64,000 bases of DNA, from contig JAHFHX010000005.1 in assembly GCA_023246655.1 (NCBI GenBank), positions 67 to 64,066 on the forward strand, read 5' to 3'. A model generated the notes under the pieces. It ran no database searches and had not been told where the DNA came from. It was given only the letters and a program-made list of their open reading frames with translations. Below, in pieces: positions 25,391 through 59,737 of this stretch (position 1 is the first letter of the stretch; every line of letters starts with the position of its first letter). The position numbers and the translations under genes are program-made. This DNA is from Candidatus Magasanikiibacteriota bacterium (GTDB taxonomy: Bacteria > Patescibacteriota > Patescibacteriia > Magasanikbacterales > GWA2-37-8).

Positions 25391-25465
25391 CAACAACCCC
25401 CCCGAGGGGGGGGCTACGGGGTGTCACAATTCCCCGCCCAAGCGGGGAATCCAGTGAGCGAATTG
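25391..25465. repeat. partial family B palindrome (cccccccgagggggggg ... ttccccgcccaagcggggaatcc)
   Basis: Related to 54084-54196, 56114-56226 and 58997-59112. Confidence 0.5.
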
Positions 25466-26851: not shown

Positions 26852-27862
26852 ATGTTTTATCAAATGCCCGCCGAATGGGAACCGCACGAAGCCACCTGGC
26901 TCGCCTGGCCGCACCTCAAAAGTCACTGGCCTGGAAAATTTGAACCAATTCCGTACGTCTACGCCGAAATTATTCGCGCCCTCTCTGGCAGTGAAATGGT
27001 ATACTTGTGCGTGAATGATAAAAAAATGGAAGCTGAAGCGCGTGCAATTCTCAAGGAAAAAGCAGTACCAACCGATCATGTAAAATTTTTTTACATCCCC
27101 ACCAACGCCTCCTGGAGCCGCGACCACGGCCCTATTTTTGTTAGAAATGAAAAAGGGAAACGGATCATTTCCGATTGGGATTACAACGCATGGGGCGGTC
27201 AGTGGGAATACGACCTTGATGATGTCGTACCACAAAAAATCGGCAAACTCCTCAACATCCCGGTTATACAAACCCACCGCGTACTCGAAGGCGGGTCAAT
27301 CGATGTGAACGGGAAAGGCTCCCTTCTTACTACCACACAATGTCTCCTCAACAAAAACCGCAACCCGGACGCGAATCAACAAGATATTGAAAACTTTCTC
27401 AAAGAATTTTTAGGCGCGACCAATATTCTCTGGCTCAAAGATGGCGTCGCTGGCGATGATACCAGCGGCCACATTGATGATTTTGCCCGGTTTGTGAATG
27501 AAACAACGGTTGTCTGCGGGCTCGAGAAAGGCAAAAATGACGAAAATTACCAAGCGCTCAAAAATAATTTTGAAGCACTTCAAACCATGAAAGATCAAGA
27601 CGGTAAGGAACTCACGGTTATTGCTATGCCTATGCCCTCTCCCGTAGTTTACGAAAATCGCCGGCTCCCGGCCAGCTATGCCAATTTTTATATCAGTACC
27701 AAAGCAGTCTTAGTCCCCACGTTCCGCTGCCCAGAGGATGAAAAAGCGTTCGAGACTCTTGGACCGTATTTTCCAGACAGAAAAATAATCGGAGTTGACT
27801 GTACTGATCTGGTGTGGGGGCTGGGGACGATTCATTGTTCAACCCAACAGATGCCGAGATAA
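26852..27862 (+). CDS. aguA: agmatine deiminase
   Basis: MPAEWEPHEATWLAWPH N-terminus, catalytic GTIHCSTQQ. Confidence 0.9.
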   Translation: MFYQMPAEWEPHEATWLAWPHLKSHWPGKFEPIPYVYAEIIRALSGSEMVYLCVNDKKMEAEARAILKEKAVPTDHVKFFYIPTNASWSRDHGPIFVRNEKGKRIISDWDYNAWGGQWEYDLDDVVPQKIGKLLNIPVIQTHRVLEGGSIDVNGKGSLLTTTQCLLNKNRNPDANQQDIENFLKEFLGATNILWLKDGVAGDDTSGHIDDFARFVNETTVVCGLEKGKNDENYQALKNNFEALQTMKDQDGKELTVIAMPMPSPVVYENRRLPASYANFYISTKAVLVPTFRCPEDEKAFETLGPYFPDRKIIGVDCTDLVWGLGTIHCSTQQMPR

Positions 27863-38162: not shown

Positions 38163-41100
38163 ATGTACAACGCCAACACCGAAGAACAAAAAATTCTCGA
38201 ATTCTGGAAAGAAAACAAAGCTTTCGAAAAATCTGTCCAAAATCGTCCCGAAGATAAACCCTACGTTTTTTATGATGGTCCACCATTTGCCACCGGTCTC
38301 CCACACTATGGGCATATTTTAGCTTCCGTTATTAAAGATGTGGTGCCGCGTTATTGGACCATGAAAGGCTACCGCGTGCCGCGCAAGTGGATTTGGGATT
38401 GTCACGGGCTCCCGATTGAGAGTTTGATTGAAAAAGAATTGGGTATTTCATCTAAAAAACAGATTGAAAATGAATTTGGCGTAGATAAATTTAACGACGC
38501 CTGCAAATCTAAGGTGCAATTATATGTTGGCGAATGGAAAAAAATGGTAGAGCGTATCGGTCGCTGGGTAGAATATGATAATTCCGCCAAAACTATGGAC
38601 CCAACCTATATGGAATCGGTCTGGTGGGCCCTCAAAACCATTTGGGATAAAGGCCTCATCTACGAAGGTCGGAAAGTCCTTATGTACTGCCCGCACTGCG
38701 AAACGCCCGTCTCCAAGGCAGAGATTGCCATGGATAATAGCTATAAGGATATAACGGAAGAGTCCGTCACCGCGAAGTTTAAATTAAAAAATAAAAATGA
38801 AAAAATAAAAAATATTGAAGGCGATATTTTTATACTCGCGTGGACGACAACGCCGTGGACATTGCCGGGGAATGTGGCGCTGGCGGTTGGGAAGGATATC
38901 TTTTACTCAGTCGTCCAAGCGACTAATGGAGTATATATTGTTGCGTCTGACCGAGTGGAAAAAGTTTTTGCTGGAGAAACAGTTGAAGTCCTGAAAGAAG
39001 TGAGAGGCGTGGATTTGGCTGGCTTAGAATACGAGCCGCTTTTTGACATGCCGGCCATGCAAGAAACTGGCAAGAAGGCATATTATGTCTCAACGGCCAA
39101 TTTTGTCACGACCGCTGATGGTACCGGTGTCGTCCATACGGCCGTGATTTATGGTGAAGACGACTATAATCTTGGCCTCAAACTCGATCTGCCCATGGTA
39201 CCAATGTTAAATGAGAGAGGGGAGTTTAATGAGGTGGCACCAGAATTTCTCCGCGGGGCTTATTTCAAAAAAGCGGAGAAAGAAATTAAGAACGACCTCG
39301 AAAAACGTGGTTTATTATTTTCCCGCGAGCAATTCACGCACTCCTATCCGCATTGTTGGCGCTGCAACACCCAGCTTATTTACAACGCTATTTCCGCATG
39401 GTTCATTAATATTCAAAAAATTAAAACTCGTCTCATTGAACTCAACCAAAATATTAATTGGTACCCAGAGCACTTGAAAGAGGGTCGTTTTCTGAATATC
39501 CTTGAGACAGCACCAGATTGGAATATTTCCCGTAATCGCTACTGGGCGACGCCGTTGCCGTTTTGGAAATGTAGTCGAAAGGAACAAGGAACAAGGAACA
39601 AGGAACAAGGTGATTGCGACAACATTGTATGCATCGGTAGTGTCGCCGAGCTGAAAGAGAAAGCGACCAACTTTTCCGAAGTATTCCCGACCGACAATGT
39701 TGCCGAGCTGGATTTGCACAAACAGTTCATGGATAAAATCAAACTCAAGTGTGACCAATGTGGGGGAATAATGGAGCGCATTCCGGAAGTGATTGATTGT
39801 TGGGTAGAATCTGGTTCGGTGCCATTTGGGCCGTTGCATTACCCGTTTGAGAACAAACAGGAGTTTAAAGACAAATTCCCGGGCCAATATATTGCTGAGT
39901 ATATTAATCAAACTCGCGCCTGGTTTTATTACACGCATGTGATGGCGACGCTTTTGTTTGATTCTAATGCTTTTGAGAATTGCGTTACCACCGGTGAAAT
40001 CCAAAATGACAAAGGCGAAAAATTGTCCAAGTCAAAACGAAATTTTACTGACCCCTGGATTATTATTGAGCAGTATGGCGTTGATGCTCTCCGTTATTAT
40101 TTAATGACCAGCCCAGTGATGCTCGCGGATAATTTGTTATTCAACGACCGCGAAGTCAAAGATATTTATAACAAAGTCGTCAACATGCTCTCGAATGTGC
40201 TGGAGTTTTATCAGATGTACGCAGCACCAACTGTCATCCCGAGCGAGGCTCGCGCCGACGAGGGATCTCTGGCTCACTCGACGACGGACAGAGATTCCTC
40301 ACCCCTGCGACGGGGATTCGGAATGACAAAACATAGCAAACATATTCTCGATCGTTGGATTATGGCTAAACTCCATGAGTTAGTCAAAACCGTCACCGAG
40401 GAAATGGATAAATACAACACGGTAAAAGCCGGCCGGCCAATTAAGGATTTTATTGATGATCTTTCCACGTGGTATCTGCGCCGGAGCCGCGATCGCTTTA
40501 AGGGTAGTGACGAGCTCGATAAACAGCACGCTCTCCACACCCTCCGTGAAGTGCTTCTGGCACTCTCCAAACTCATGGCTCCGTTCACGCCGTTCATTGC
40601 CGAAAAAATCTATCAATCCCTACATTCCTACTCGCCTACCGCCCTACAACCCTCGGTTCACCTAGAAGATTGGCCTCAGTACCACGAAGAGCATCACGTG
40701 CAAGGCGTGCTTGATGAGATGAGTGGTGTCCGTAAAATGGTGGAACTCGGTTTGGCGCTCCGGGCTGAGAATAAAATTAAAGTCCGTCAGCCACTGTATC
40801 AATTAACAGTGAACAATGAACATTTATCACACGAACTCAAGAGTATCATTGCTGATGAGCTAAATGTTAAACAGGTTGATTTCGCTGAATTCGTTGAGGA
40901 GAATCCAGATTGGGTGAGCAAAGAGGACGGTAAGCCCAAAGTGTGGCTCAATATCAAACTTGATGAGCAATTAAAAAAAGAGGGGCTACTCCGCGAAGTG
41001 ATTCGCACTATTAACCAATTGCGCAAAGAGATGAAGTTGACGATTCAGGATCAGGTGGTAATTTTGTATTCAACTAATGATGCGGAGTTACAACAAGTAT

Positions 41101-41225
41101 TTACACAGTTCGCTGAAGAGGTTAAACGATCGGTACTCGCGAGCGACCTGGTGGCAAGCAAAGACATCGCAAAAGTTGAGATCGAAATTGATAAAAAATC
41201 GCTAAAATTAGAGATAAAAAAGTAG
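38163..41225 (+). CDS. ileS: isoleucine--tRNA ligase (type 2)
   Basis: HIGH (PHYGHIL), KMSKS (KLSKSK), editing domain; 1020 aa. Confidence 0.95.
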   Translation: MYNANTEEQKILEFWKENKAFEKSVQNRPEDKPYVFYDGPPFATGLPHYGHILASVIKDVVPRYWTMKGYRVPRKWIWDCHGLPIESLIEKELGISSKKQIENEFGVDKFNDACKSKVQLYVGEWKKMVERIGRWVEYDNSAKTMDPTYMESVWWALKTIWDKGLIYEGRKVLMYCPHCETPVSKAEIAMDNSYKDITEESVTAKFKLKNKNEKIKNIEGDIFILAWTTTPWTLPGNVALAVGKDIFYSVVQATNGVYIVASDRVEKVFAGETVEVLKEVRGVDLAGLEYEPLFDMPAMQETGKKAYYVSTANFVTTADGTGVVHTAVIYGEDDYNLGLKLDLPMVPMLNERGEFNEVAPEFLRGAYFKKAEKEIKNDLEKRGLLFSREQFTHSYPHCWRCNTQLIYNAISAWFINIQKIKTRLIELNQNINWYPEHLKEGRFLNILETAPDWNISRNRYWATPLPFWKCSRKEQGTRNKEQGDCDNIVCIGSVAELKEKATNFSEVFPTDNVAELDLHKQFMDKIKLKCDQCGGIMERIPEVIDCWVESGSVPFGPLHYPFENKQEFKDKFPGQYIAEYINQTRAWFYYTHVMATLLFDSNAFENCVTTGEIQNDKGEKLSKSKRNFTDPWIIIEQYGVDALRYYLMTSPVMLADNLLFNDREVKDIYNKVVNMLSNVLEFYQMYAAPTVIPSEARADEGSLAHSTTDRDSSPLRRGFGMTKHSKHILDRWIMAKLHELVKTVTEEMDKYNTVKAGRPIKDFIDDLSTWYLRRSRDRFKGSDELDKQHALHTLREVLLALSKLMAPFTPFIAEKIYQSLHSYSPTALQPSVHLEDWPQYHEEHHVQGVLDEMSGVRKMVELGLALRAENKIKVRQPLYQLTVNNEHLSHELKSIIADELNVKQVDFAEFVEENPDWVSKEDGKPKVWLNIKLDEQLKKEGLLREVIRTINQLRKEMKLTIQDQVVILYSTNDAELQQVFTQFAEEVKRSVLASDLVASKDIAKVEIEIDKKSLKLEIKK
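39578..39610 (+). repeat. tandem heptamer (ggaacaa)x4 inside ileS
   Basis: Encodes KEQGTRNKEQG; perfect 7-bp units. Confidence 0.6.
40232..40330. repeat. family A palindromic element inserted in frame in ileS
   Basis: ctgtcatcccgagcgaggc...gagggatctctggctca...ggaatgacaa; 99 bp (33 codons) translating to VIPSEARADEGSLAHSTTDRDSSPLRRGFGMT. Confidence 0.75.
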
Positions 41226-41438
41226 AACGTCTTGACAAAAGTATTCCCAGTGACTAAACTAGTGGTTTGAATTATCGAAGGAGACCAAATTCATACCACA
41301 CTACTTATGAGTTTGCATAACTCAGAGGAGCCCGATCCTGGTACGTGCAGCTACGAAAATAAAATTACTAAAGAATTCACTATAACCCAGCGAGTGCGAG
41401 TGGCCGTTGGGTTATTTTAATTCTAAAAAAATTATACT

Positions 41439-42728
41439 ATGAACAGTAATAACGTAACCGTAGCCGGAAAAACAATCTTATTAATTCATGCTGGTTCAAT
41501 GCGTAAAAAATTTATTTTTGATCGACTAAAAGAATTAGGTATACAAATTGTTTGTTTAAATAAGGAAAGAACCACTTTGGCCGAGCCCTATGTGAGTCAC
41601 TGGATTACCGCCGATTTAAAAGATTACCAGGCGTGTCTTGACCAAGTGAAACAATTCATGAGCGATAATCCGACGGTTAAAATTGACGGAGCGTTGACAT
41701 TTTGGGATGAATGCATCTTGCTCACTTCCAAAATTGTTGACGCATTTGGTTGGGTTGGTATTCCTTTTGCGGTATCAGATCGAATCAAGAATAAATATGT
41801 TTTTAGAGACGCTTGCCAAACCGAAGGAATCTCGGCACCGTGCCATGTACTTATTCATCAAGAAACGGACTTAGACCAGGTTGATAAAAAACTAGAATAT
41901 CCGCTCGTGATTAAACCAATTTACGGTGCCTGTAGTGCCTTTGTGGTACGGGTAGAAAACCAGGCAGAACTTCAAGCAGCCTACGCCACAATCAAAAAAA
42001 ATATTAATAATTTTTGGTTAGCGCCAGAATGGAAGAATCTCGAAGTACAAGCAGAAGAATACATTGACGGTCAAGAAGTGGATATTGATATTCTGTTGCA
42101 AGATGGGCAGTGTACATATATCGCCATTATTGATAATAAGGAGACCAATGAGCCTTATTTTGTGGAGACTGGTTGGTCCTCACCTTCGCGATTATCCGCT
42201 CCGGAGCAGCGCGCTTTAGAAGCAATGGCTCTATCCACGCTTGATAAACTTGGGGTTAAAAATGGTTGCGTCCACTTTGAAGCTAAAATTGGTTCTCAGG
42301 GAGCGGTTCCTATTGAAGTCAACTTACGTATGGGCGGTGGCGAGGTTTATATTTACTCAAAGCTCGTATGGGGAGTTGATTTAGTAGAAGGTGCCGCCAC
42401 GATTGCCCTGGGTTTACCGTTGCACGTTGCTAAAGCCGCCTCTCCGCATTATCACCTCTTGTCGCATCGTTTTTTGTCTGGTGATACCTGCCAGGTAACT
42501 AAAATCAACGTTCATAAAGACCTCTACACTCAAGACTATTTTGTGGATCTATATTTTGAAAAACAGGCCGGCGATATATTTTTAGCTCCTCCAGAAGGTT
42601 ATGATCGCAGCATCGGTGTTATCACTGTAAAGGGTCAGAGCCACCAAGAAACAGCCAATAATTTAGCCAAGGCGCTTAAGTATATTGATTATACTCTGAA
42701 AAAAATGGAAACCAAACAGCAGGATTAA
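41439..42728 (+). CDS. ATP-grasp domain protein (carboxylate-amine ligase-like)
   Basis: Pre-ATP-grasp plus ATP-grasp blocks (EEYIDGQEVDIDIL, VHFEAK, EVNLRMGGG). Confidence 0.75.
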   Translation: MNSNNVTVAGKTILLIHAGSMRKKFIFDRLKELGIQIVCLNKERTTLAEPYVSHWITADLKDYQACLDQVKQFMSDNPTVKIDGALTFWDECILLTSKIVDAFGWVGIPFAVSDRIKNKYVFRDACQTEGISAPCHVLIHQETDLDQVDKKLEYPLVIKPIYGACSAFVVRVENQAELQAAYATIKKNINNFWLAPEWKNLEVQAEEYIDGQEVDIDILLQDGQCTYIAIIDNKETNEPYFVETGWSSPSRLSAPEQRALEAMALSTLDKLGVKNGCVHFEAKIGSQGAVPIEVNLRMGGGEVYIYSKLVWGVDLVEGAATIALGLPLHVAKAASPHYHLLSHRFLSGDTCQVTKINVHKDLYTQDYFVDLYFEKQAGDIFLAPPEGYDRSIGVITVKGQSHQETANNLAKALKYIDYTLKKMETKQQD

Positions 42729-42752
42729 ATCTCTATTTCTGTCATTTAAACT

Positions 42753-44132
42753 ATGTTGCAAAACAAAGAAAAAATTTTATTCGTGCAAAGTAAACTCATT
42801 ACCAATGGTATACAGATTACGGTAAAGGGGAAGCGCTTTGCGATTCAATATCCACTACCCATTTGGCGGAAGACTCCACCAGCGATTCGACAAATTTTAT
42901 TAGAGCATTTAACGTTTGGAAATACCCATTTTTTACCAGTCACCTTAGGTTACGATCGAATTCGCTACAATACCGCACTCCCGCTTTTTGAGCCATTACT
43001 TTTTCGAAATCAAGCAATCTCTATTGTTAAGGCTGAGAAGTATGATAAAGTACCACCCCTAACATATTTGCGAAAATTTTTTAATTTGCAGTTTGATTTT
43101 GCGCCAAGAGCCGGGACAGTAGTAGGTGAAGATGCCCGGAAAAAATTTTCCAAAACTCCAGTAACGGCTATCATCCCATTTACCTTCGGCAAAGAGAGTC
43201 TTGCCACCTTTGCCTTATGTCGCGAGGTGGGTATTAAACCGGTATTAGTTTATTCCCAAGAACCATCCTCACCATACGAGGAAGCTTACAAAAAGAAACA
43301 ATTAATTAATTTTAGCAAAGAATTTAATGTTGATACGTATTTTGTTAAAAATGAACCTGGATTATTTCGCTATGATGTTGCTTTTAAACAGAAGCCAGGT
43401 ACGGAGGTAGGGTGGGGGCTTCAGACAACGTTACTTTCTTGGCAGGTATTGCCTTTTGTTTTTGCCTATCAAGCACAATATATTTTTTTTGGTAGTGAAT
43501 ATTCAAACAATGAATATGAGATCAATGAAGCTGGGTGGCGTGTGCAGTTATCATATGATCAGACCAGTTTTTTTACTATGGAGCAAGATAATGCTATTCG
43601 TGTGTTGACGCATGATAACTGTCGCGTGCGGACCAGCTTAGAACCTATGGAGGAAACTGCTATTCTATTTATGTTGCATCGACGCTATCCAGAGATTGGT
43701 AAATATCAATTCTCGTGTACCGGAGAAAAATCATTGTACCCTGGCTCGCAGTGGTGCCACCAGTGTTATAAATGCTGGCGGATGTTTTTAATTGCTTGTT
43801 GTGTTGGAGTTGATCCATATTCCTTTGGGTTTAAAAAAGATCTCTTAAATACACCGGGCATCTTTACTAATTATTTTGGCGAGGAGATTAAAAGTGGTTC
43901 TCAAGATGAACTCGATTTCTGTTTCTATGTTCTGCATAAAAAGAATTGGCCATCTCCATATGTTACCAAATTCCGCCGCCACCGGCTCTCACACCTTAAG
44001 CCCTGGGGTTTCTACCGCAAAAATTTTACTTCGCTCCAACCTCATCTTAATCTTCCCGCACCCTATCGCGAAAAGTTTTTAGCTATCTTTGCACAGGAAT
44101 TACGCCAGCTCAAAAAAGTCCTGCCACGGTAG
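42753..44132 (+). CDS. hypothetical protein, possible degenerate PP-loop/PAPS-reductase-like ATPase with C-terminal Cys cluster
   Basis: AIIPFTFGKESLATFAL resembles degenerate SGGKDS PP-loop; Cys cluster C..12..CHQCYKC. Confidence 0.4.
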   Translation: MLQNKEKILFVQSKLITNGIQITVKGKRFAIQYPLPIWRKTPPAIRQILLEHLTFGNTHFLPVTLGYDRIRYNTALPLFEPLLFRNQAISIVKAEKYDKVPPLTYLRKFFNLQFDFAPRAGTVVGEDARKKFSKTPVTAIIPFTFGKESLATFALCREVGIKPVLVYSQEPSSPYEEAYKKKQLINFSKEFNVDTYFVKNEPGLFRYDVAFKQKPGTEVGWGLQTTLLSWQVLPFVFAYQAQYIFFGSEYSNNEYEINEAGWRVQLSYDQTSFFTMEQDNAIRVLTHDNCRVRTSLEPMEETAILFMLHRRYPEIGKYQFSCTGEKSLYPGSQWCHQCYKCWRMFLIACCVGVDPYSFGFKKDLLNTPGIFTNYFGEEIKSGSQDELDFCFYVLHKKNWPSPYVTKFRRHRLSHLKPWGFYRKNFTSLQPHLNLPAPYREKFLAIFAQELRQLKKVLPR

Positions 44133-44221
44133 TATAAAGGGTTGACAATATCTTTGTTTTATTTTACAGTTATCTATAGTGGGGAACCATACCACCTTTT
44201 TTTCTATATCTCATAATCAGT

Positions 44222-45187
44222 ATGATAACTGTCAAGCAAGTTTTTGATCTCAGCCTCAAAATGGGGATGGCCGCTGATCCACGTGGTCTGCAAGCGATAA
44301 AAAAACACTTCAATCGGGTTAAACATCAGTATAATGATCTTCCTGCCGCCGAGAAGGAATACTTTGACATCAATCGCCTCACAAACCCTTACCTCGATAG
44401 CTCAGTACTTATCGATGACGGTACAACCAAAGTTAAACGGGTGTTAGCCGGCATCGATATTGGTGCTGGAGAAATTTTACTCGCGAGCCAACTCAATGAG
44501 CGTGGCAAGAAAATCGATGTCGTTATTGGTCATCACCCGCTTGGTAAAAATTTGGCTTATTTAGATGAAGCTATGGAACTGCAAGCTGAAGTGCACGAGA
44601 GTCATGGTGTGCCTATTCATCTAGCAGAGAAAATTTTGGAAGAACGTGTCAACGAAGTGGGTCGGGGTATTCACCCTATGAATCATTATCAAGTGGTTAA
44701 TATTGCTGAATTACTCCATATTAATTTAATGAATACACACACCACGACGGATAATTTGGTTGATCAATTCATGTATAACTTTTTGAAGAAAAGAGCTCCC
44801 GAGACCGTGGGAGATTTAATGAAAGCGCTCATGGAAATTCCTGAATATCAGCAGGCTAAGCGACTTGGGACTGGTCCTAAAATTTTTGCTGGCAATCCCA
44901 AACACCGCATTGGCAAATTTTTACTCGAGATGACCGGTGGCACTAACCCCTCGAGTAAAGTGTATGAGCAATACTCCCGCGCTGGTATCAGTACTATTGT
45001 TGGAATGCATATCCGGGAACAATCTATGGAAGCCGTTAACACGCACCAGCTTAATGTTATTATTGCCGGTCACATTTCATCCGATTCGCTTGGCATGAAT
45101 TTGTTTCTTGATGAACTTGAAAAGCGCGGCATCGAAGTTGTGCCCTGTGGTGGGTTGATAAGGGTGAGTCGGGTTAAAAAGAAGTAA
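44222..45187 (+). CDS. Nif3-like dinuclear metal center protein
   Basis: DVVIGHHPL and VIIAGHISSDSLG resemble Nif3/YqfO HHP and AGHY.TE motifs. Confidence 0.5.
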   Translation: MITVKQVFDLSLKMGMAADPRGLQAIKKHFNRVKHQYNDLPAAEKEYFDINRLTNPYLDSSVLIDDGTTKVKRVLAGIDIGAGEILLASQLNERGKKIDVVIGHHPLGKNLAYLDEAMELQAEVHESHGVPIHLAEKILEERVNEVGRGIHPMNHYQVVNIAELLHINLMNTHTTTDNLVDQFMYNFLKKRAPETVGDLMKALMEIPEYQQAKRLGTGPKIFAGNPKHRIGKFLLEMTGGTNPSSKVYEQYSRAGISTIVGMHIREQSMEAVNTHQLNVIIAGHISSDSLGMNLFLDELEKRGIEVVPCGGLIRVSRVKKK

Positions 45188-45251: not shown

Positions 45252-45833
45252 ATGATCTCTCTCCTCCAAGGTAAAATTATCTCAAACGCCAACGGTGAGA
45301 TCACGCTCATGACCACGGGTGGTGTTGGGTACCGCGTAAAAGTAAGCCCTAACGCTAGCCTCAATTGCATTGTGGGCACAGAGGTTACCCTCGACACGTA
45401 TTTGGTAGTTCGCGAAGACGTCCTCGAACTTTCTGGTTTTGCCAACATCGCGGAGAAAGAGTTGTTTAAACAATTTATTACCGTGACTGGCGTTGGCCCT
45501 AAGACCGCTCTCCATTTGCTTTCACTGGGCACCGTAGAAGAAATTACTATTGCCATCGGCCGTGGAGACATTGATTACCTCACCAAGGTGAGCGGCATTG
45601 GCAAAAAAACCGCCGAGCGGATTGTGGTTGAACTCAAAAGCAAACTCAAAGAACATTTGGAAGAGAGCGGTACAACGTTTACCCCGGGTAGCGACACTCT
45701 CGGCGATGTTATTGATGCTTTGGTAACGCTTGGTTACTCTGTTTTACAAGCGCGAGAAACGGCTAAAAAACTTGATCCAGCCGGGAAGACGAGTGAGCAG
45801 TTGTTGCGAGAAGCGCTAAGGGTGATAAAGTAA
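45252..45833 (+). CDS. ruvA: Holliday junction DNA helicase RuvA
   Basis: N-terminal OB domain, two HhH motifs, C-terminal RuvB-interaction domain. Confidence 0.9.
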   Translation: MISLLQGKIISNANGEITLMTTGGVGYRVKVSPNASLNCIVGTEVTLDTYLVVREDVLELSGFANIAEKELFKQFITVTGVGPKTALHLLSLGTVEEITIAIGRGDIDYLTKVSGIGKKTAERIVVELKSKLKEHLEESGTTFTPGSDTLGDVIDALVTLGYSVLQARETAKKLDPAGKTSEQLLREALRVIK

Positions 45834-45841
45834 ACTTTCAA

Positions 45842-45944
45842 CTGTCATTCCGAGCGAGGCGTTGCAGCCGACGAGGGATCTCTGGCTCAATCAACATTGG
45901 GTGGTCAAGTGAGCCAGAGATCCCTCCTGCGGTCGGGATGACAA
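45842..45944. repeat. family A palindromic element (intergenic ruvA/pyrF)
   Basis: tgtcattccgagcgaggc...gagggatctctggctca / tgagccagagatccctc...gggatgacaa. Confidence 0.8.
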
Positions 45945-45952
45945 TTGGAGTG

Positions 45953-48175: not shown

Positions 48176-49057
48176 TTAATAATAAATTTTTGCCCCGCTT
48201 TTATCACGATGATATTTGCCAAACTCAGTAAGTTGGTTAGCAACTGCTTTTGATACCACCGGCCCTTCCATGCACATGCGGATACCAAGCGGGTCAACGC
48301 AACACTGCCCGCAGATGCCGATGCCGCATTTCATAAAGCGTTCAATGCTAATTTCGCATTCGAGATTACGCAGATTACAAAATTCTAAGACTTTAAATTC
48401 CATCAACTCAGGACCACATGTTACAAATAGTAGCTTTTTTGGCATTGTCTGATTACGCAGATACGAGTCGGCAAGTTCAGACAATAAATCCGTCACATAA
48501 CCTTTGTGTCCCGCGCTACCATCATCAGTTGCCAGGTGGAGAGTTACGTTCGGTAATTTTTTTACCCTTTCTTCAAATAATAAATTGTCTTTATCACGTG
48601 CGCCGACGCAAAAGTCGATTGTGACGTTGTTGTCGTGAGCCAGAGATCCCTCGTCGGCCGCGAGGCCTCGCTCGGGATGACAATTGGAGAGTTCTTCTGC
48701 CAAAAAACCCAGTGGTGCTGCGCCGTATCCGCCCGCGACCATTATGTAGTGGGTGTTTGGTTTTACAGAAAAAGCAGTGCCATAGGGGCCGGTAATGCCT
48801 ACTCGGTCACCAATCTTCATTTCAAACAAAGCTTTGGTAAGAGGGCCGCGGTTGAAAATAGTTAAGCCAAATTGTGCGCCACTATCATAACCAATTGAAA
48901 ACGGTTTTTGGTCGAGTCCGGGTACCCAGAGCATGACGAATTGGCCGGGTTTGCTTTTGAGAGAAAAATTAAAATAAAAAGTTTTGACCTGTTCAGTTTC
49001 GTTGACGATTTTTGTGATCGGTAGAAAAATTGGTTGGTCCATATTTGCAAGTGTCAT
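48176..49057 (-). CDS. pyrK: dihydroorotate dehydrogenase electron transfer subunit
   Basis: FAD/NAD-binding fold plus C-terminal 2Fe-2S Cys cluster CGIGICGQCC; start moved to internal Met because the upstream extension lies in a repeat. Confidence 0.8.
   Translation of the reverse strand: MTLANMDQPIFLPITKIVNETEQVKTFYFNFSLKSKPGQFVMLWVPGLDQKPFSIGYDSGAQFGLTIFNRGPLTKALFEMKIGDRVGITGPYGTAFSVKPNTHYIMVAGGYGAAPLGFLAEELSNCHPERGLAADEGSLAHDNNVTIDFCVGARDKDNLLFEERVKKLPNVTLHLATDDGSAGHKGYVTDLLSELADSYLRNQTMPKKLLFVTCGPELMEFKVLEFCNLRNLECEISIERFMKCGIGICGQCCVDPLGIRMCMEGPVVSKAVANQLTEFGKYHRDKSGAKIYY
48635..48683. repeat. family A half-element inserted in pyrK
   Basis: gtgagccagagatccctcgtcggccgcgaggcctcgctcgggatgacaa in frame (DEGSLAHDNN). 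Confidence 0.65.
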
Positions 49058-52896: not shown

Positions 52897-52935
52897 AAGA
52901 TATTTAATTATTTTGAGTTACAAAACATCAATTTT

Positions 52936-53138
52936 TGTCATCCCGAGCGCACGAGGGATCTCTGGCTCACACATTTGTCATTTCGAGCGGAGTGACGCCT
53001 CGCGGCGGAACGAAGTCGAGAAATCTCGTCGTATCGTTGCGAGATTCATCCACTACGCTCCTTCGTCGTCGCTTCGGTCGGAATGACAAGTAAGCCAGAG
53101 ATCCCTCGTCGGCTGCGAAGCCTCGCTCGGGATGACAG
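52936..53138. repeat. tandem family A elements between pyrB stop and pyrI start
   Basis: Two adjacent copies of gtcatcccgagcg...gagggatctctggctca ... gggatgacag. Confidence 0.8.
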
Positions 53139-53144
53139 TGTATG

Positions 53145-54062: not shown

Positions 54063-54083
54063 AGTAGATGGTTATTAGTTAAT

Positions 54084-54196
54084 CCCCCCTCGAGGGGGGC
54101 TCACGGGGGGTGTAAGACTCTTGTGTGGCCGTTTCGTCGTCCAACCGTTAGCGACGCAAAGGTCTCACACCCCCACTACCCCCCTCGAGGGGGGAA
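54084..54196. repeat. family B palindromic element overlapping the carB 3' end
   Basis: cccccctcgaggggggc...ggtgtaag...tctcacaccccc...cccctcgagggggg; supplies the last about 15 codons and stop of carB. Confidence 0.75.
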
Positions 54197-57100
54197 TTTA
54201 CAAATTCCTGCCACGAGAGAGGCACTCCGTCCTTTTTTGCTCTATTCGTCAAACAATCCAGAAACAACATTGCCGTTTGCAGGTTGGTAATAATAGGCAC
54301 GTGATGGTTAATAGCCATGCGGCGAATTTGGTAACCATCAGTCGTCACTTTCTTGCCCTGGCCACTTGGAATATTTATTACCACATCCACCTCGCGCTCC
54401 GCAATTGCTGTCAACACATTTGGCTCACCGCCCTCGCGTGCTTTATATAAAAAAGCCGAGGCAATACCGTGGCGTGACAGAAAATCGTGCGTGCCTTCAG
54501 TAGCATAAATGTTCCACCCCTCTTCGTCAAGCTGTTTAATAGCCGGCAGAAGTTCTAATTTTTTATCGCCACCAATGGAGAGTAAAATATTTTTGCCCTT
54601 AACCGTTTGTTCAGTCGCAAGCCAGGACATAAAGAACGCTTCTTGGTAGTTGCGCCCCAGGCACGCCACCTCGCCAGTCGAGGCCATCTCCACACTGGCA
54701 ATCGGGTCCGACCCTTTGAGTCGGTTATAAGAGAATTGCGGGGTTTTTACCCCCACATAGTCCAAATCAAGGGTAAAATACTGGGCTGGCACGTGACGAC
54801 CCAGCATCACTTGCGTGGCAATCTCAATAAAATTATGGCCGGTCACTTTGGAAACAAACGGAAAAGAGCGTGAAGCACGTAAATTACATTCAATAACTTT
54901 AACCTCATTATTTTTGGCCAGCAGTTGAAAGTTAAAAGGCCCGGTAATGTTAAGCGCCGCCACAATCTGGCGCGCGATGTGTTTTGCTTGGCGAATTGTT
55001 TCGAGGTAGAGCCGCTGTGGTGGAAGTACAATGGTCGCGTCTCCCGAATGTACGCCCGCATTTTCAATATGTTCCGAAATTGCCTTAATCACAATTTCTC
55101 CATCCTGCGCCACGCCATCCACCTCCAATTCTTTTGCTCCAGTAATAAATTTTGACATTACCACCGGGTGCTCGGGCGACACAATCGCCGCTTCGCCCAA
55201 ATATTTCTCCAATTCTTCGTCACTCCACACCACATTCATGGCTGTGCCGGAAAGAATATATGAAGGGCGGATGATAAGAGGATACTGAACATCACTCGCA
55301 AATTTTTTAGCGGCCGAGAGGTTAGTCACTTCTTGCCAGGTTGGCTGGTCTATTTTAAGTTTATTCAAAAGTGCGGAAAATTTTTGACGATTTTCAGCGA
55401 TGTCGATTGATTGGGGGGAGGTGCCGAGGATGAGCATCGTCGGTTTACTGTCATCCCGACGACGAAGGAGGGATCTCTGGCTTACCGATTCAACTGTCAT
55501 CCCGAGCGAGGCCTCGCGGCCGACGAGGGATCTTTGTCCGTCGATTGGTGAGCCAGAGATTCCTTGTCGCTGCGGCGCTCCTCGGAATGACAATTGAGGG
55601 TATGCCTTCGCGAGTGGAAGTGCCAAATTATTCGGAATTTGCCCACCCACCGACACAATGATCCCCTTGGGATTTTCAAAATCCGCAATGTCGCGCACTC
55701 TTTCCAAAGTTAATTCTTCAAAATACAAACGATCTGATTCGTCATAATCAGTGGAGACCGTTTCCGGGTTAGAGTTGATAATAATGGGGGATTCATCTAG
55801 TTTGCGCAGTGTCCGGGCGGTGTTGACGGCGCACCAATCAAATTCTACGGATGATCCGATACAGTACGGGCCAGAGCCAAGGACGATAATGGATTTTTTT
55901 GTACTCGGTTTTATATCATGTTCGGTGCCATGATACGTTGTGTAAAGATAATTAGTTTCGGCAGAAAATTCTCCAGCCAAAGTATCAATTTGTTTTATCA
56001 CCGGCGTAATTTTATTTTTAATGCGCAGTTCTCGGATTTTGTCTTCGGTTGAGTTGATTAATTTGGCGATGGTTTTGTCGGAGAAGCCGAATTGTTTGGC
56101 GGTGCGGAACAACTCCCCCCTCGAGGGGGGTAGTGGGGGTGTGAGTCCTTTGCGTCGCGGATCATTCGCCAACCGTGAGCCACGCAGGGGTCTTACACCC
56201 CCCATGAGGCCCCCCTCGAGGGGGGATTTGCGAACGCTGTGTTCAACATCCACAATCGCCTTCACATGCTCCAAAAACCATTTATCAATCTTCGACATCT
56301 CATGAATTTTCTCCACACTCATCCCACCACGCATCGCCTTATAAATTGCAAACAAACGCCGATCGGTTGGGTGTTCAATTTCCGCCTCGGGATCAGGAAT
56401 ATCATGCGGATAGTCACTCAAGCCATTGGCGCCAATGTTTAACATGCGCACGGCTTTTTGGAGCGCCTCCGGAAATGATCGCCCAATTGCCATCACCTCA
56501 CCAACACTTTTCATTTCCGATCCAATGGTCCGTTCCGCGATTTTAAATTTCGTTAAATCCCACCGCGGAATTTTCACCACGAGATAGTCGAGCGCCGGTT
56601 CAAAACAGGCGGACGTTTTTTTCGTCACGGAATTTCGGAGTTCATGCAATTGTTTCCCCAGCGCTAGTTTCGCAGCGACGAACGCAAGGGGATACCCAGT
56701 GGCTTTAGATGCGAGCGCACTCGACCGGCTCAACCGCGCGTTCATCTCAATCACGCGGTAATCGCCGTTCTTAGGGTTCAGCGCATACTGAATATTACAT
56801 TCGCCGACAATTCCCATTGCTCGCGCTACCTTGATAGCTACCTCGCGCAGCATGTGATACTCCTCATTCGTCAGCGTCTGCGACGGCGCGACCACAATGC
56901 TCTCGCCCGTATGAATACCCATGGGGTCAAAATTTTCCATGTTACACACCGTAATGGCGGTGTCATTACTATCGCGCACAATTTCGTATTCAATTTCTTT
57001 CCACCCGCCCAAATATTCTTCAATCAAAATTTGGGGAGCACCATGCAGTGCTTCCCCGGCGCGTTCGCGGAGTTCAGCCTCATTCTCAATTTTTCCTGAT

Positions 57101-57627
57101 CCTAATCCGCCGAGCGAAAAACCCGAGCGCATCATAATCGGGTATTTTATTTTTTTTGCTGCCTCAAGGGCTTCCTCCACCGTCGTCACCGCAAAACTCA
57201 CCGGAGTCTTAATCCCAATCTTAGTCAAAGCCCTCTTGAAGAAATCCCGATCCTCAGTAATGCGTATCGCTTCCACTGGAGTCCCGAGAACCACAACCCC
57301 ATTTTTTTTTAACACCCCTTTTGCCTCCAACGCGAGCCCCAAATTCAGCGCCGTCTGCCCGCCAAAACCCAAGAGGATCCCGTCCGGTTTTTCTTTTTTA
57401 ATAATTTGCGAAACGGTTTCTAAATTGAGTGGCTGTAAATAAACCGTGTCTGCCATCCCCGGGTCCGTTTGCACCGTGGCAATATTGGGGTTCACGAGTA
57501 CGGTAAAAATTCCCTCTTCTTTAAGAGCTTTAATGGCCTGTGAGCCGGAGTAATCGAATTCGCCAGCTTGGCCAATGCGGAGACCGCCGGAGCCGAGGAG
57601 GAGGATTTTTTTAATTTGTTTGGGCAT
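54148..57627 (-). CDS. carB: carbamoyl-phosphate synthase large subunit
   Basis: Two ATP-grasp halves, oligomerisation and MGS-like domains; two extra internal inserts. Confidence 0.95.
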   Translation of the reverse strand: MPKQIKKILLLGSGGLRIGQAGEFDYSGSQAIKALKEEGIFTVLVNPNIATVQTDPGMADTVYLQPLNLETVSQIIKKEKPDGILLGFGGQTALNLGLALEAKGVLKKNGVVVLGTPVEAIRITEDRDFFKRALTKIGIKTPVSFAVTTVEEALEAAKKIKYPIMMRSGFSLGGLGSGKIENEAELRERAGEALHGAPQILIEEYLGGWKEIEYEIVRDSNDTAITVCNMENFDPMGIHTGESIVVAPSQTLTNEEYHMLREVAIKVARAMGIVGECNIQYALNPKNGDYRVIEMNARLSRSSALASKATGYPLAFVAAKLALGKQLHELRNSVTKKTSACFEPALDYLVVKIPRWDLTKFKIAERTIGSEMKSVGEVMAIGRSFPEALQKAVRMLNIGANGLSDYPHDIPDPEAEIEHPTDRRLFAIYKAMRGGMSVEKIHEMSKIDKWFLEHVKAIVDVEHSVRKSPLEGGLMGGVRPLRGSRLANDPRRKGLTPPLPPSRGELFRTAKQFGFSDKTIAKLINSTEDKIRELRIKNKITPVIKQIDTLAGEFSAETNYLYTTYHGTEHDIKPSTKKSIIVLGSGPYCIGSSVEFDWCAVNTARTLRKLDESPIIINSNPETVSTDYDESDRLYFEELTLERVRDIADFENPKGIIVSVGGQIPNNLALPLAKAYPQLSFRGAPQRQGISGSPIDGQRSLVGREASLGMTVESVSQRSLLRRRDDSKPTMLILGTSPQSIDIAENRQKFSALLNKLKIDQPTWQEVTNLSAAKKFASDVQYPLIIRPSYILSGTAMNVVWSDEELEKYLGEAAIVSPEHPVVMSKFITGAKELEVDGVAQDGEIVIKAISEHIENAGVHSGDATIVLPPQRLYLETIRQAKHIARQIVAALNITGPFNFQLLAKNNEVKVIECNLRASRSFPFVSKVTGHNFIEIATQVMLGRHVPAQYFTLDLDYVGVKTPQFSYNRLKGSDPIASVEMASTGEVACLGRNYQEAFFMSWLATEQTVKGKNILLSIGGDKKLELLPAIKQLDEEGWNIYATEGTHDFLSRHGIASAFLYKAREGGEPNVLTAIAEREVDVVINIPSGQGKKVTTDGYQIRRMAINHHVPIITNLQTAMLFLDCLTNRAKKDGVPLSWQEFVNSPLEGGSGGVRPLRR
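55448..55593. repeat. family A element inserted in frame in carB
   Basis: Translates to ...GQRSLVGREASLGMTVESVSQRSLLRRRDDSK... inside carB. Confidence 0.75.
56114..56226. repeat. family B element inserted in frame in carB
   Basis: Translates to PLEGGLMGGVRPLRGSRLANDPRRKGLTPPLPPSRGE. Confidence 0.75.
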
Positions 57628-57636
57628 AGTCTTTAA

Positions 57637-57685
57637 CTGTCATCCCGAGCGAGGCTTCGCAGCCGACGAGGGATCTCTGTCTCAG
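57637..57685. repeat. family A half-element immediately upstream of carB start
   Basis: ctgtcatcccgagcgaggcttcgcagccgacgagggatctctgtctcag. Confidence 0.7.
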
Positions 57686-57804
57686 TTTTTACTTTATCTT
57701 AGCCAAATTTATTAAATTTCACCCTGTCGTCACTTGCTTTCTTCTTCTTCTGCTATTATGCCTTGTTCCTCTAGCGCCACGGTAGCGCGAGAAAGGAGGA
57801 CAAA

Positions 57805-58164: not shown

Positions 58165-58185
58165 TTTAAAAGGACACTCGCCATT

Positions 58186-58352
58186 TGTCATTCCGACCGC
58201 AGGAGGAATCTCTGGCTCACTCAACGGTGTCGACATCGGTCGTTGGTTGAGCCAGAGATCCCTCGTCGCCGCGAGGCTCGCTCGGGATGACAGATCGCCA
58301 TAACCATTTAGCCATGTCAACTAGATCCTTCGCTCCGACTCAGGATGACACC
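58186..58352. repeat. family A elements at carA 3' end
   Basis: tgtcattccgaccgc...gagccagagatccctcgtcgcc...gggatgacag plus half copy ctagatccttcgctccgactcaggatgaca. Confidence 0.7.
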
Positions 58353-59737
58353 AAGTTGTAGAATTTCTGAAATAAAAATTTCGTATCCGTCGGCCCCGGG
58401 CTCGCTTCCGGGTGAAACTGCACCGAAAAAAACGGCAGCGTCTCGTGCGCCACGCCTTCTACCGAATTATCATTCAAATTTCTAAAATTCACATACCAAC
58501 CCTTCGGGAGTGTTTTCTCATCCACCGCATACCCATGGTTTTGGCTGGTAATGACACACTTGCCCGAAAAGGAGCTACGCTCCCTCGGGCCAAGTTTCGT
58601 CCCTGCCCCGAGAGGGCCGCGCCCTTTTTCGGGGGCAAGTTCCATACATGGCTGATTCTGCCCGCGGTGGCCAAAGGGGAGTTTGTACGTTTTGGCGCCA
58701 GCGGCGAGCGCCATCAGTTGCGACCCCAAACAAATTCCCATAATTGGTTTTGGTTTTTTTCCGCCCGAAGCGGATCCGCCTTGGGCGGAGAGTGCCTTCT
58801 TTAAAATCGTAATCGTCTCCGTACACTGCGCCGGGTCGCCCGGGCCGTTGGAGAGGAAGAGGCCGTCGAATTTATCATTCGTGTAATCGTAATTGTAGGG
58901 CACGCGTTCAATAGTCCAGGGGAATTGTTGGAGGGAGCGGATGATGTTTTCTTTCATGCCGCAGTCCACGGCGATAATTGTTTTTGTCCGGCCAAGTCCC
59001 CCCTGTGAGGGGGGTAGGGGGGTGTGAGCCGTCGGGGACAATAAACTCGCATCCTTTGATAATTGGCGACGCACCGGTCTTACACCCCCCGGTGAGCCCC
59101 CCTCGAGGGGGGAGTTTCCGTGATACGTTTTTGGACGAGTGATTGAGACTTCGGCGACGAGATTGCGGGTATTGGGGTCGACAAAAGTGAGACCGCGAAC
59201 GAAACCCCTCTCTGTATCTCTCCCCTTATAGGAGAGAGAGTGATTGAGAGAAACGGCGATAGTTCCTTCGTTTACGGTTTTCCCTCCCCTATAAGGGGAG
59301 GGGCGCGGGGTGGGGTTTCGGTCACCGCTCACCATCGCCCCGAGCATCACCCCACTCTCCCTAATAATTTTCGTCAACGCCCGCGTATCCACGCCCATGA
59401 TAATCGGCACCTGTTCGTCCTTGAGCCACTCCAACAGCGACCGCAAGGCGGTAGCATGGCTATATTTCTCACACGCCTCACTTACCACCACTCCAGAAAG
59501 ATGAATTTTTTTGGATTCCCAGCGTCCAGGGCCAGGCACGCCGTAATTACCAATCAACGGATACGTAAACGTTAAAATTTGCCCATTATACGATGGGTCA
59601 GTCAGCGTTTCCACGTAGCCGGTCATGCCAGTGTTAAAGACGACCTCGCCATGAAAAACACCCTTCTGATGGGTGGGGGAGAGGCCAGGGAAGGATTGGC
59701 CGTTTTTTAGGAGGAGTTGGGAGGGGTTGAATTTCAT
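58340..59737 (-). CDS. carA: carbamoyl-phosphate synthase small subunit (glutamine amidotransferase)
   Basis: CarA N-domain plus class I GATase (GICLGSQ, HPE); about 85 aa longer than typical because of three palindromic inserts. Confidence 0.9.
   Translation of the reverse strand: MKFNPSQLLLKNGQSFPGLSPTHQKGVFHGEVVFNTGMTGYVETLTDPSYNGQILTFTYPLIGNYGVPGPGRWESKKIHLSGVVVSEACEKYSHATALRSLLEWLKDEQVPIIMGVDTRALTKIIRESGVMLGAMVSGDRNPTPRPSPYRGGKTVNEGTIAVSLNHSLSYKGRDTERGFVRGLTFVDPNTRNLVAEVSITRPKTYHGNSPLEGGSPGGVRPVRRQLSKDASLLSPTAHTPLPPSQGGLGRTKTIIAVDCGMKENIIRSLQQFPWTIERVPYNYDYTNDKFDGLFLSNGPGDPAQCTETITILKKALSAQGGSASGGKKPKPIMGICLGSQLMALAAGAKTYKLPFGHRGQNQPCMELAPEKGRGPLGAGTKLGPRERSSFSGKCVITSQNHGYAVDEKTLPKGWYVNFRNLNDNSVEGVAHETLPFFSVQFHPEASPGPTDTKFLFQKFYNLVSS
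58582..58616. repeat. small palindromic insert in carA (ccctcggg...ccccgagaggg)
   Basis: Encodes extra GPRERSSFSG-like segment. Confidence 0.45.
58997..59112. repeat. family B element in frame in carA
   Basis: tcccccctgtgagggggg...ggtgtgag...tcttacacccccc...cccctcgagggggg. Confidence 0.75.
59199..59319. repeat. family C element in frame in carA
   Basis: cgaaacccctctct...ccctcccctataaggggaggggcgcggggtggggtttcg; inverted copy of 758-854. Confidence 0.8.

Follow-up and report, generated by a model that had tools for sequence, protein, structure and literature searches.

A remote MurL relative with a predicted PP-loop fold, paired with an ATP-grasp ligase in candidate-phyla bacteria and archaea: a candidate ligase-epimerase couple

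To our knowledge, the only ATP-consuming, unidirectional peptide L-to-D epimerase described so far is MurL. The enzyme named together with it, MurD2, is an L-Glu-adding Mur ligase. The two constitute an alternative peptidoglycan pathway, exemplified by XOO_1320/XOO_1319 of Xanthomonas oryzae (Feng et al. 2017, reviewed in PMC8788868, PMC5808125). MurL is ATP- and Mg-dependent, forms AMP, and acts in the L-to-D direction only; adenylation of the alpha-carboxylate of the substrate was proposed, and the protein was described as having no known domains (PMC8788868; PMC5808125). Documented activity is restricted to the enzymes of Xanthomonas, Micromonospora, and Salinispora (PMC8788868). The present analysis concerns a pair of genes, A and B, carried by a DNA stretch of 64,000 nucleotides (nt), hereafter the window, from a Magasanikibacteriota bacterium of the candidate phyla radiation (CPR, Patescibacteria). 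Gene A encodes a predicted L-amino-acid-ligase (LAL)-type ATP-grasp enzyme and gene B a remote relative of MurL with a predicted PP-loop fold. The searchable literature contained no description of this CPR and archaeal B family, of its PP-loop fold, or of a pairing between an LAL and an epimerase.

The MurL-related protein and its ligase neighbour

Gene A (41439-42728, + strand, 429 amino acids, aa) is followed by gene B (42753-44132, + strand, 459 aa), a MurL-family, QueC-like PP-loop protein presumed to act as a peptide C-terminal L-to-D epimerase, and by gene C (44222-45187, + strand, 321 aa), which encodes a NIF3/DUF34 protein. The three genes are flanked upstream by ileS (38163-41225) and downstream by ruvA (45252-45833), with spacers of 213 nt between ileS and A, 24 nt between A and B, 89 nt between B and C, and 64 nt between C and ruvA. 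The closest relatives of this locus carry the labels Magasanikbacteria or Peregrinibacteria. Scans of the window with Rfam (at gathering thresholds) and for tRNA genes gave no match.

For B, no Pfam match was obtained, the QueC, asparagine-synthase, and NAD-synthase families of Pfam and NCBIfam gave none at E<=0.1, and a single-sequence search of the PDB returned noise only (a nitrogenase at E=0.077). An AlphaFold model was built on 51 homologues (predicted local distance difference test, pLDDT, 94.4; predicted template-modelling score, pTM, 0.93). The 20 best Foldseek matches of this model in the PDB are all PP-loop enzymes, with E-values down to 5e-5, and include QatC, QueC, MnmA/TrmU, YcfA, Cap9, TtuA, the ATP-pyrophosphatase subunit of GMP synthase, and argininosuccinate synthase. 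The TM-scores are low (0.33-0.42), reflecting the PP-loop core that these proteins have in common. In the model, a strand (residues 138-142) leads into the segment FTFGKES (residues 143-149, encoded at 43179-43199, + strand) and then into a helix (residues 147-159), which is the PP-loop topology; compared with QueC, there are an additional N-terminal domain of about 130 aa and a longer helical C-terminal domain. By its model, B has an adenine-nucleotide alpha-hydrolase (PP-loop) fold.

Conservation within the family points to the same segment. In the 51 homologues, F143, G146, and K147 are invariant, as are the four cysteines C322, C335, C338, and C341, and both E148 and S149 are conserved at >=90%. 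The PP-loop of the clade to which B belongs is thus a degenerate TFGKES, and more distant members of the family read SFGKDS at this position. A profile of these distant members puts SFGKDS/FTFGKES onto the SGGxDS loop of MnmA, GMP synthase, and TtuA (HMMER, E 0.003-0.03), the alignment onto SGGVDS of MnmA having E=0.003-0.004. The four cysteines (residues 322-341, 43716-43775, + strand) are spaced C-x12-C-x2-C-x2-C and probably form a zinc site. The zinc site of QueC, C-x8-C-x2-C-x2-C, resembles this cluster, a likeness by sequence spacing only.

A first-pass annotation of this DNA had reported much of this layout: three co-directional genes 3' of ileS behind a TTGACA-17-TAAACT promoter near 41231, a 429-aa ATP-grasp enzyme in first position, a 459-aa protein with FTFGKES as a degenerate PP-loop and a C..CHQCYKC cluster, and a Nif3-like protein in third position. 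All of these elements were found. The promoter-like pattern lies at 41232-41260 and is kept in the orthologous loci L003 and L008, the cysteine cluster takes the form C-x12-CHQCYKC, and both the model and the profile alignment onto SGGxDS agree with the PP-loop. Structure prediction of B, which the annotation had suggested as a check, returned the adenine-nucleotide alpha-hydrolase fold described above.

The only family-level sequence relation detected for B, and one that extends beyond the PP-loop core, is with MurL. B itself scores 11.6 bits (E=0.072) against the NCBIfam model MurL_Xanthmoales (NF041275), whose equivalog cut-off is 700 bits. The same model matches 25 of the 51 aligned members of the B family; the best score in the family, 48.9 bits (3.5e-13), belongs to P0093, a protein 31% identical to B over its full length, and covers model positions 73-445 of 447. 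In addition, PF26298 (MurL_epimerase_C) is precomputed on several B-family members. Through such intermediate sequences, B is recognized as a remote MurL-family protein, apparently homologous over nearly its full length. Genuine MurL proteins did not appear in the searches: the top 120 proteins of a profile search with distant B members were 'hypothetical' CPR and archaeal proteins only, and tblastn of a plasmid collection for a genuine MurL found none. Neither the inspected neighbourhoods of B nor 10 further mid-sized open reading frames (ORFs) of the window contain a Mur ligase, so that a MurD2-type pairing was not found. Scoring under the equivalog cut-off and having no such partner among the genes inspected, B is related to MurL but is not classed as a MurL itself.

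QueC adenylates a carboxylate. Because of this, a QueC-like fold fits the adenylation proposed for MurL. The remote relationship of B to MurL points to peptide or D-amino-acid chemistry rather than to RNA modification. The first-pass annotation had proposed a small-molecule, peptide, or RNA-modification pathway, of which the peptide option is the one retained.

Gene A is more readily placed. Its product matches Pfam ATP-grasp_4 at 88.3 bits (E=5e-25, cut-off 27) and gives weak matches with ATPgrasp_N and LAL_C2 (20.4 bits for the latter, threshold 29.4). The best solved relative is the L-amino acid ligase BL00235 (3VOT, 4e-28), followed by 4WD3 (RizA-type, 6.5e-7) and BacD (about 3e-5). Since the best solved relatives are L-amino acid ligases, A is classed from its sequence as an LAL-type ATP-grasp enzyme. 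Its orthologue in other CPR lineages is the N-terminal half of a double ATP-grasp protein of about 800 aa (LAL-like plus Ddl-like) encoded beside B: in an all-against-all BLAST, A is 43-48% identical, end to end, to the N-terminal halves of the double ATP-grasps of L001, L005, L006, L007, and L072. The C-terminal half of the double protein is D-Ala-D-Ala-ligase-like (2e-45, under the Ddl cut-off). The clade of the window keeps the LAL-like half only, and a second, Ddl-like half was found nowhere else in the window. A first metagenome scan for close relatives of A returned none, and a second one returned relatives at <=47% identity only.

Distribution and gene neighbourhoods

An exhaustive profile search collected 1,315 cluster representatives of the B family at E<=1e-3 and 167 at E<=1e-30. 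All named members are annotated as 'hypothetical'; their sources are many CPR lineages, Omnitrophica, Desulfobacterales, and Aenigm-, Nano-, Bathy-, Thor-, and Promethearchaeota. Linkage was counted in 63 species-representative genome loci containing B. B has an ATP-grasp gene within 3 kb in 58 of them, in CPR bacteria as well as in Bathy- and Asgard archaea, and the ATP-grasp gene adjoins B on the same strand in 50, including 14 of the 15 archaeal-type loci. For the reverse count, 80 metagenome loci were anchored on the ATP-grasp gene; B follows it in 12 of the 64 that have enough flanking sequence. That B nearly always comes with an ATP-grasp gene, and that the ATP-grasp gene often comes without B, fits an optional tailoring enzyme acting on the product of the ligase.

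In CPR bacteria, the usual gene order is a double ATP-grasp, B, an MR/MLE enzyme, an unannotated protein of 340-369 aa, an ATP-grasp_3 enzyme, and a pyridoxal-phosphate (PLP) decarboxylase. The MR/MLE enzyme, a cofactor-independent dipeptide epimerase type present in 24 of the 63 loci, is L-Ala-D/L-Glu-epimerase-like (1e-59), the ATP-grasp_3 enzyme is distantly MfnD- and PylC-like, and the decarboxylase is LysA/FslC-like, that is, similar to diaminopimelate decarboxylases (1e-43 to 1e-47). Ddl-like matches of the ATP-grasps range from 2e-45 to 2e-52. Genes for an LD-carboxypeptidase of family S66, a DgcN-like DUF1611 protein (7e-45), an M15 peptidase, and a beta-lactamase-fold protein are found occasionally. 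The A-B pair of the window is a reduced version of this cassette, which is widespread in CPR bacteria and takes a simpler form in some archaea. The Ddl-like, L-Ala-D/L-Glu-epimerase-like, LysA-like, DgcN-like, S66, and M15 partners suggest that peptidoglycan-type peptides are involved in CPR bacteria.

The archaeal-type form was found in 15 loci from Bathyarchaeia and from Thor-, Hermod-, and Promethearchaeota (L043-L048, L051-L052, L056-L058, L060, L066, L068, and L070; for example L057:9986-14108). There, B is followed by a single Ddl-like ATP-grasp (2e-52) and then by a GNAT protein, with a PRK06381-type threonine-synthase-like PLP enzyme, above its curated cut-off, encoded divergently on the other strand. 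These archaeal members imply that the chemistry of B is not tied to UDP-MurNAc. A D-Ala-D-Ala-ligase-like enzyme is present in archaea that have no murein. In L060, a 2,4-diaminopentanoate-dehydrogenase-like gene adjoins the module.

Other partners occur at the place of B. A GNAT/Acetyltransf_6 protein follows the ATP-grasp in 18 of the 80 ATP-grasp-anchored loci, and double ATP-grasps followed by one to three tandem GNAT/Acetyltransf_6 proteins of about 295-300 aa, replacing B, were also seen in L073, L016, and L063. The loci of this type are L073:747-3438, L016, L063, L080-L081, L085, L097, L107, L109, L120, L122, L134-L135, L138, L140, L142-L143, L145, L148-L149, and L151. The GNAT/Acetyltransf_6 protein is an alternative tailoring partner of the same ligase. 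In some CPR cassettes, a second, divergent B paralogue (25-30% identical) stands beside the first (L001:8620-9993, L005:9392-10771, L023:11454-12737, and L054:11744-12973), which suggests that the full pathway adenylates or epimerises at two separate steps.

In sister lineages of the window, the gene directly upstream of B encodes protein X, an unannotated protein of about 504-533 aa with 37% identity between lineages (L010:8403-9980, L011:1675-3276, L072:4420-5934, the end of the gene at L074:2-175, and the contig of P0009). No relative of protein X was found in Pfam, NCBIfam, PADLOC, or the PDB. In L072 it stands beside a double ATP-grasp and without B; the window has no protein X. Several candidate equivalences between loci were rejected. 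The cassette protein of about 340-369 aa (protein U) shows no similarity to C, of which it might have been the counterpart; the 386- and 504-aa proteins of L072 were rejected as a split B; and the 386-aa protein, considered as a VanX-like dipeptidase, has a sub-threshold M15 match only (6e-4). Finally, the TPA records L009, L010, L018, L025, L042, L062, and L063 are titled 'uncultured Gammaproteobacteria', 'Pseudomonadales', 'Vicinamibacterales', or 'Actinomycetota'; their gene content and synteny look CPR-like or archaeal-like, and these organism labels look unreliable.

Leader, NIF3 gene, and other features of the window

The spacer between ileS and A holds a conserved leader. It starts with a promoter-like site at 41232-41260 (+ strand; -35 TTGACA at 41232-41237, a 17-nt spacer, and -10 TAAACT at 41255-41260), of putative sigma-70 type, with 10 of 12 consensus matches in a scan. 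Such matches are not enriched in the 4.4-kb region as a whole (14, against 10.7 +/- 3.7 in shuffled sequence), and TTGACA-17-TAnAnT recurs, at an equivalent position, in both orthologous spacers (L003 and L008). Then comes a small leader ORF of 37 codons (41307-41420, + strand), MSLHNSEEPDPGTCSYENKITKEFTITQRVRVAVGLF, which begins MSLHNSEEPDPG and contains the acidic-proline motif EEPDP (41325-41339, + strand). ORFs at the same position in L003 and L008 encode MESSSLDDPDPITVQ... (start MESSSLDDPDP) and MEASYSKEEPEPNST... (start MEASYSKEEPEP), giving the family pattern [ED][ED]P[DE]P. The Pro codons of the motif show synonymous third-position changes, and the amino acids are kept, as expected if the leader peptide is translated; in L003, a 29-aa gene was independently called at this position. 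The leader ORF was absent upstream of the ATP-grasp gene in all other loci examined.

The third element is a terminator-like hairpin (41382-41419, + strand), ATAACCCAGCGAGTGCGAGTGGCCGTTGGGTTAT at 41382-41415 followed by TTTT. The T-run ends about 20 nt before the ATG of A, which leaves no room for a promoter, so that transcription has to pass the hairpin to reach A-B. The outer stem ATAACCCA/TGGGTTAT and the T-run are kept in L003 and L008, and the inner stems differ yet pair. The hairpin, with energies of -16.4 (window), -18.1 (L003), and -11.5 kcal/mol (L008), dominates both the minimum-free-energy and the centroid folds of the leader; a default terminator scan did not list it. The leader ORF of the window runs through the hairpin and stops in its T-run, whereas those of L003 and L008 stop at its 5' arm. 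The arrangement of promoter, leader ORF, and hairpin is a candidate transcription attenuator, which probably controls the expression of A-B. Acidic-proline motifs are slow-to-translate sequences, sensitive to elongation factor P (EF-P). Since the ORF overlaps the hairpin, translation to the end of the ORF would keep the hairpin covered or melted and permit read-through into A-B, and a ribosome stalled at the acidic-proline motif would leave the terminator free to form.

The product of gene C matches the NIF3 structure 3RXY (E=8.6e-27, residues 58-312), reaches 21.9 bits against Pfam NIF3 (just under the threshold of 23.4), and carries the GHHP metal-site motif at residues 103-106; PF01784 is precomputed on most of its close homologues. 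By homology, C is a genuine NIF3/DUF34 protein. The function of this family is unsettled, a role as metal chaperone or insertase having been proposed (PMC8469502). C has 6,035 homologues in the database in which B has 96, and is therefore about 60-fold more widespread, with many homologues at 60-67% identity. A promoter-like site, TTGACA-17-TACAGT (44142-44170, + strand, from a consensus scan), lies in the 89-nt B-C spacer and is kept as TTGACA-17-TACAGT in L003 and TTGACA-17-TACTGT in L008; it belongs to a window-wide promoter-like repeat family (D9) with the motif CTTGACAA, also seen at 5785 and 23313. The same slot of the genome exists without the pair: L071 (963 kb) has an ileS...NIF3...ruvA backbone without A or B, L072 and L073 have a double ATP-grasp and other partners but no B, and the C orthologues at these slots are 64-65% identical to that of the window. 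C accompanies B in 6 of the 63 loci, all from the clade of the window or its sister, and is absent from 57. Within that range, the B-C adjacency holds over 54-75% B identity (the window, L003/L009, L008, L010, L011, L074, and the contig of P0009), with gaps of 16-27 nt in L010 and L011, and a NIF3 gene lies near the double ATP-grasp, in varying orientation, in 8 of the 80 ATP-grasp-anchored loci.

On account of its own promoter, its wide spread, the slot conserved without A and B, and its presence in only 6 of the 63 loci, C is probably a conserved backbone neighbour and not a member of the A-B pathway, and a functional link between them is judged unlikely. The first-pass annotation had grouped the three genes in a single operon, with the Nif3 gene as its third member, and had named two observations as refuting, a 459-aa protein devoid of the nucleotide-hydrolase fold and a lack of co-conservation elsewhere; neither was made. 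The A-B unit and its co-occurrence hold (58 of 63 loci with an ATP-grasp gene within 3 kb). The third membership does not, given some 6,000 close homologues of C and its presence in the slot without A and B, and the locus reads better as two transcription units, leader-A-B and C.

The CTTGACAA-N-TAT(A/T)A(A/C)A(A/G)T motif just mentioned occurs upstream of rpoB (5785-5814), of an ORF at 23387 (23313-23342), and of gene C (44141-44170), and its recurrence suggests strong sigma-70-type promoters genuinely used in this genome. Most genes inspected have no obvious Shine-Dalgarno sequence. Two families of palindromic repeats are also dispersed in the window. The first, CTGTCATCCCGAGCGAGGC...GCCGACGAGGGATCTCTGGCTCA, is about 55 nt long and has at least nine copies on both strands (40231-40288, 45837-45948, 48635-48690, 52934-52975, 53082-53139, 55489-55580, 57630-57690, and 58181-58294). 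Some of these copies lie in frame within ileS (an 'ADEGSLAH' stretch), a pyrK-like ORF, and carB, leaving the ORFs unbroken, and the family resembles a miniature mobile or REP-like element whose insertion into proteins is tolerated. The second consists of CCCCCCTCGAGGGGGG palindromes (25396-25425, 54083-54198, 56111-56229, and 58997-59116), several of them within or beside the carB ORF (54148-57627). Elsewhere, the window encodes a PGA_cap (CapA-like) protein and an apparent polyamine set (15444-16736, 20532-21914, 24265-25371, and 26852-27862), the latter comprising an Orn/Arg-decarboxylase-fold enzyme, a deoxyhypusine-synthase-like enzyme, and an agmatine-deiminase-type PAD_porph protein. 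The Orn/Arg-decarboxylase-fold gene (20532-21914) was considered as a cassette-type decarboxylase and rejected: it gave no tblastn match with the decarboxylases of the cassettes and sits among polyamine genes.

Interpretation and comparison with known systems

The reading proposed here, to which about an even chance is given, is that A and B form a ligase-epimerase couple, in which A creates a peptide bond, after which B activates the newly exposed C-terminal carboxylate by adenylation and turns the residue from L to D. A would form the bond through an acyl-phosphate (ATP to ADP and phosphate), leaving a new C-terminal L-residue with a free alpha-carboxylate. B would then adenylate this carboxylate (ATP to AMP and pyrophosphate), making the alpha-proton acidic, invert the centre, and release the product by hydrolysis, in one direction only. 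The logic would be that of MurD2/MurL, namely to ligate an L-residue and then epimerise it on the peptide, with an ATP-grasp ligase replacing the Mur ligase. The product would most likely be a short peptide ending in a D-amino acid and feeding cell-wall-type peptide metabolism. A broader version of this proposal is regarded as doubtful: MurL-like PP-loop enzymes would be general ATP-driven, one-way peptide epimerases behind ATP-grasp ligases, giving CPR bacteria D-amino-acid peptides from L-amino acids alone, without racemases or Mur ligases. Ddl-, MfnD-, and LysA-like partners would assist in making, for example, building blocks of the cell wall that are of L-Ala-D-Glu type or contain D-Ala. 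A minimal form of the route would operate in some Bathy- and Asgard archaea, and the module of the window's clade would be switched by a new type of attenuator with an acidic-proline motif.

Several observations weigh against the ligase-epimerase couple. The score of B against the MurL model is far from that of an equivalog, and the link between them is carried by intermediate sequences and family models rather than by genuine MurL sequences. In close relatives, B adjoins protein X, which replaces A or stands alongside it. The MR/MLE epimerase of 24 loci would make B redundant unless two D-centres are made. As for the leader, it is known from three sequences of one clade, and no antiterminator structure was identified in it. 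Most PP-loop enzymes, moreover, substitute the adenylated carbon, by amidation or thiolation, and do not epimerise, so that B might form amides.

This last point leads to a rival explanation, in which B adenylates a carboxylate of the ATP-grasp product and passes it to ammonia or an amine, as a QueC, an asparagine or NAD synthetase-type enzyme, or an analogue of MurT/GatD. The nearest solved folds (QueC, QatC, Cap9, and YcfA), the habit of most of the superfamily, and the dipeptide epimerase already present in 24 of the 63 cassettes speak for it; it is nevertheless considered unlikely, given that the sole family-level relation of B, nearly full length and beyond the PP-loop core, is with MurL, that no QueC, asparagine-synthase, or NAD-synthase match was obtained at E<=0.1, and that the neighbourhoods contain no glutaminase partner. 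Conversely, B could be taken for a true functional MurL acting on a nucleotide precursor. The MurL model is indeed its only curated family match, CPR bacteria generally make peptidoglycan, and the neighbouring genes share a cell-wall-peptide theme. Against this stand the scores of 11.6 bits for B and 48.9 bits for the best member under a cut-off of 700, the lack of a Mur ligase among the adjacent genes (ileS, A, C, and ruvA) and the 10 window ORFs scanned, and the presence of B-family genes, likewise beside an ATP-grasp gene, in Bathyarchaeia and Asgard archaea, which are not known to have murein; this identity appears quite unlikely. In addition, at least one CPR bacterium is credited with an experimentally supported glutamate racemase in a reference cited within PMC11974145.

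The remaining explanations assign other substrates or partners to B. That the small ORF upstream of A encodes a precursor resembling those of ribosomally synthesized and post-translationally modified peptides (RiPPs), modified by A and/or B through ligation or through C-terminal epimerisation or activation, would agree with its conserved N-terminal motif, its variable C-terminal part, and its place directly upstream of an ATP-grasp gene, and ATP-grasps acting on ribosomal peptides do exist (graspetides and PGM1 of pheganomycin). It is held to be very unlikely, since the ORF is confined to the clade of the window and the A-B pairing is far wider, A is of LAL type and not of graspetide type, and the overlap of ORF and hairpin is the geometry typical of attenuators. 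A pathway that unites the NIF3 protein C with A and B, and that perhaps modifies RNA or tRNA, would account for the B-C adjacency over 54-75% B identity with short gaps in L010 and L011 and for the NIF3 genes near 8 of the 80 double ATP-grasps, and many PP-loop enzymes modify tRNA. The separate promoter of C, its roughly 60-fold wider spread, its absence from 57 of the 63 B loci, its orthologues at the same slot without A and B (L071) or without B (L072 and L073), and the partners of B elsewhere, which are enzymes of amino-acid and peptide metabolism and carry no RNA-binding domain, render such a pathway very unlikely. Last, the best Foldseek match of B is QatC of QatABCD, and Cap9 is listed too, which could suggest a part of an anti-phage defence system (QatABCD or type IV CBASS). 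The TM-scores reflect the PP-loop core only, A, B, and C have no PADLOC match at E<=0.1, and the neighbourhoods, metabolic in content and syntenic, contain neither QatA/B/D nor CBASS genes, so that this possibility is essentially refuted.

MurL has so far been regarded as a curiosity of Xanthomonas-type peptidoglycan synthesis. The QueC-like, carboxylate-adenylating PP-loop fold predicted for B would give a structural basis to its proposed adenylation step. The family also includes a large branch that has no annotation at all. This branch counts more than 1,300 cluster representatives (E<=1e-3), is present in Omnitrophica, CPR bacteria, and Bathy-, Thor-, Hermod-, Aenigm-, and Nanoarchaeota, and is wired not to MurD2 but to ATP-grasp ligases and to enzymes of D-amino-acid and cell-wall-peptide metabolism. 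If the ligase-epimerase couple is real, it would account for the source of D-residues in genome-reduced CPR bacteria and would imply D-amino-acid peptides in archaea without murein, and the pair could be useful for the enzymatic synthesis of L,D-peptides.

Each component can be set beside a known system. Among leader-peptide attenuators, those of the E. coli pyrBI type rely on the translating ribosome to block a terminator, and the leader of A-B has the same order of promoter, short ORF, and intrinsic-terminator hairpin met by the ORF, directly before the first structural gene. It differs from the pyrBI type in that pause signals, like the antiterminator, were not identified in the three sequences, and [ED][ED]P[DE]P would be an unusual sensor. 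With the LALs BL00235/3VOT, RizA-type 4WD3, and BacD/YwfE, A shares its fold, significant sequence similarity, and a weak LAL_C2 domain. The products of known LALs, however, are L,L-dipeptides, and no epimerase is known to accompany these enzymes, whereas A is paired with B, and the A-type domain of most CPR lineages forms a fusion with a second, Ddl-like ATP-grasp domain. For B, the nearest solved folds are QueC, QatC, and Cap9, and the PP-loop ATP site is common to all of them; B nevertheless lacks a family-level match with QueC, and no deazapurine or defence context surrounds it. The closest parallel in logic is MurD2/MurL. Like B, MurL has an ATP-dependent, amino-acid-adding ligase as its genetic partner, and its conversion of ATP to AMP agrees with the predicted PP-loop fold of B. 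The partner is a Mur-family ligase in the one case and an ATP-grasp L-amino-acid ligase in the other, and a UDP-MurNAc peptide, as used in the MurL pathway, is an unlikely substrate for the archaeal B members. MurL is found in Xanthomonadales, Actinobacteria, and Alphaproteobacteria, whereas the B family belongs to CPR bacteria and archaea.

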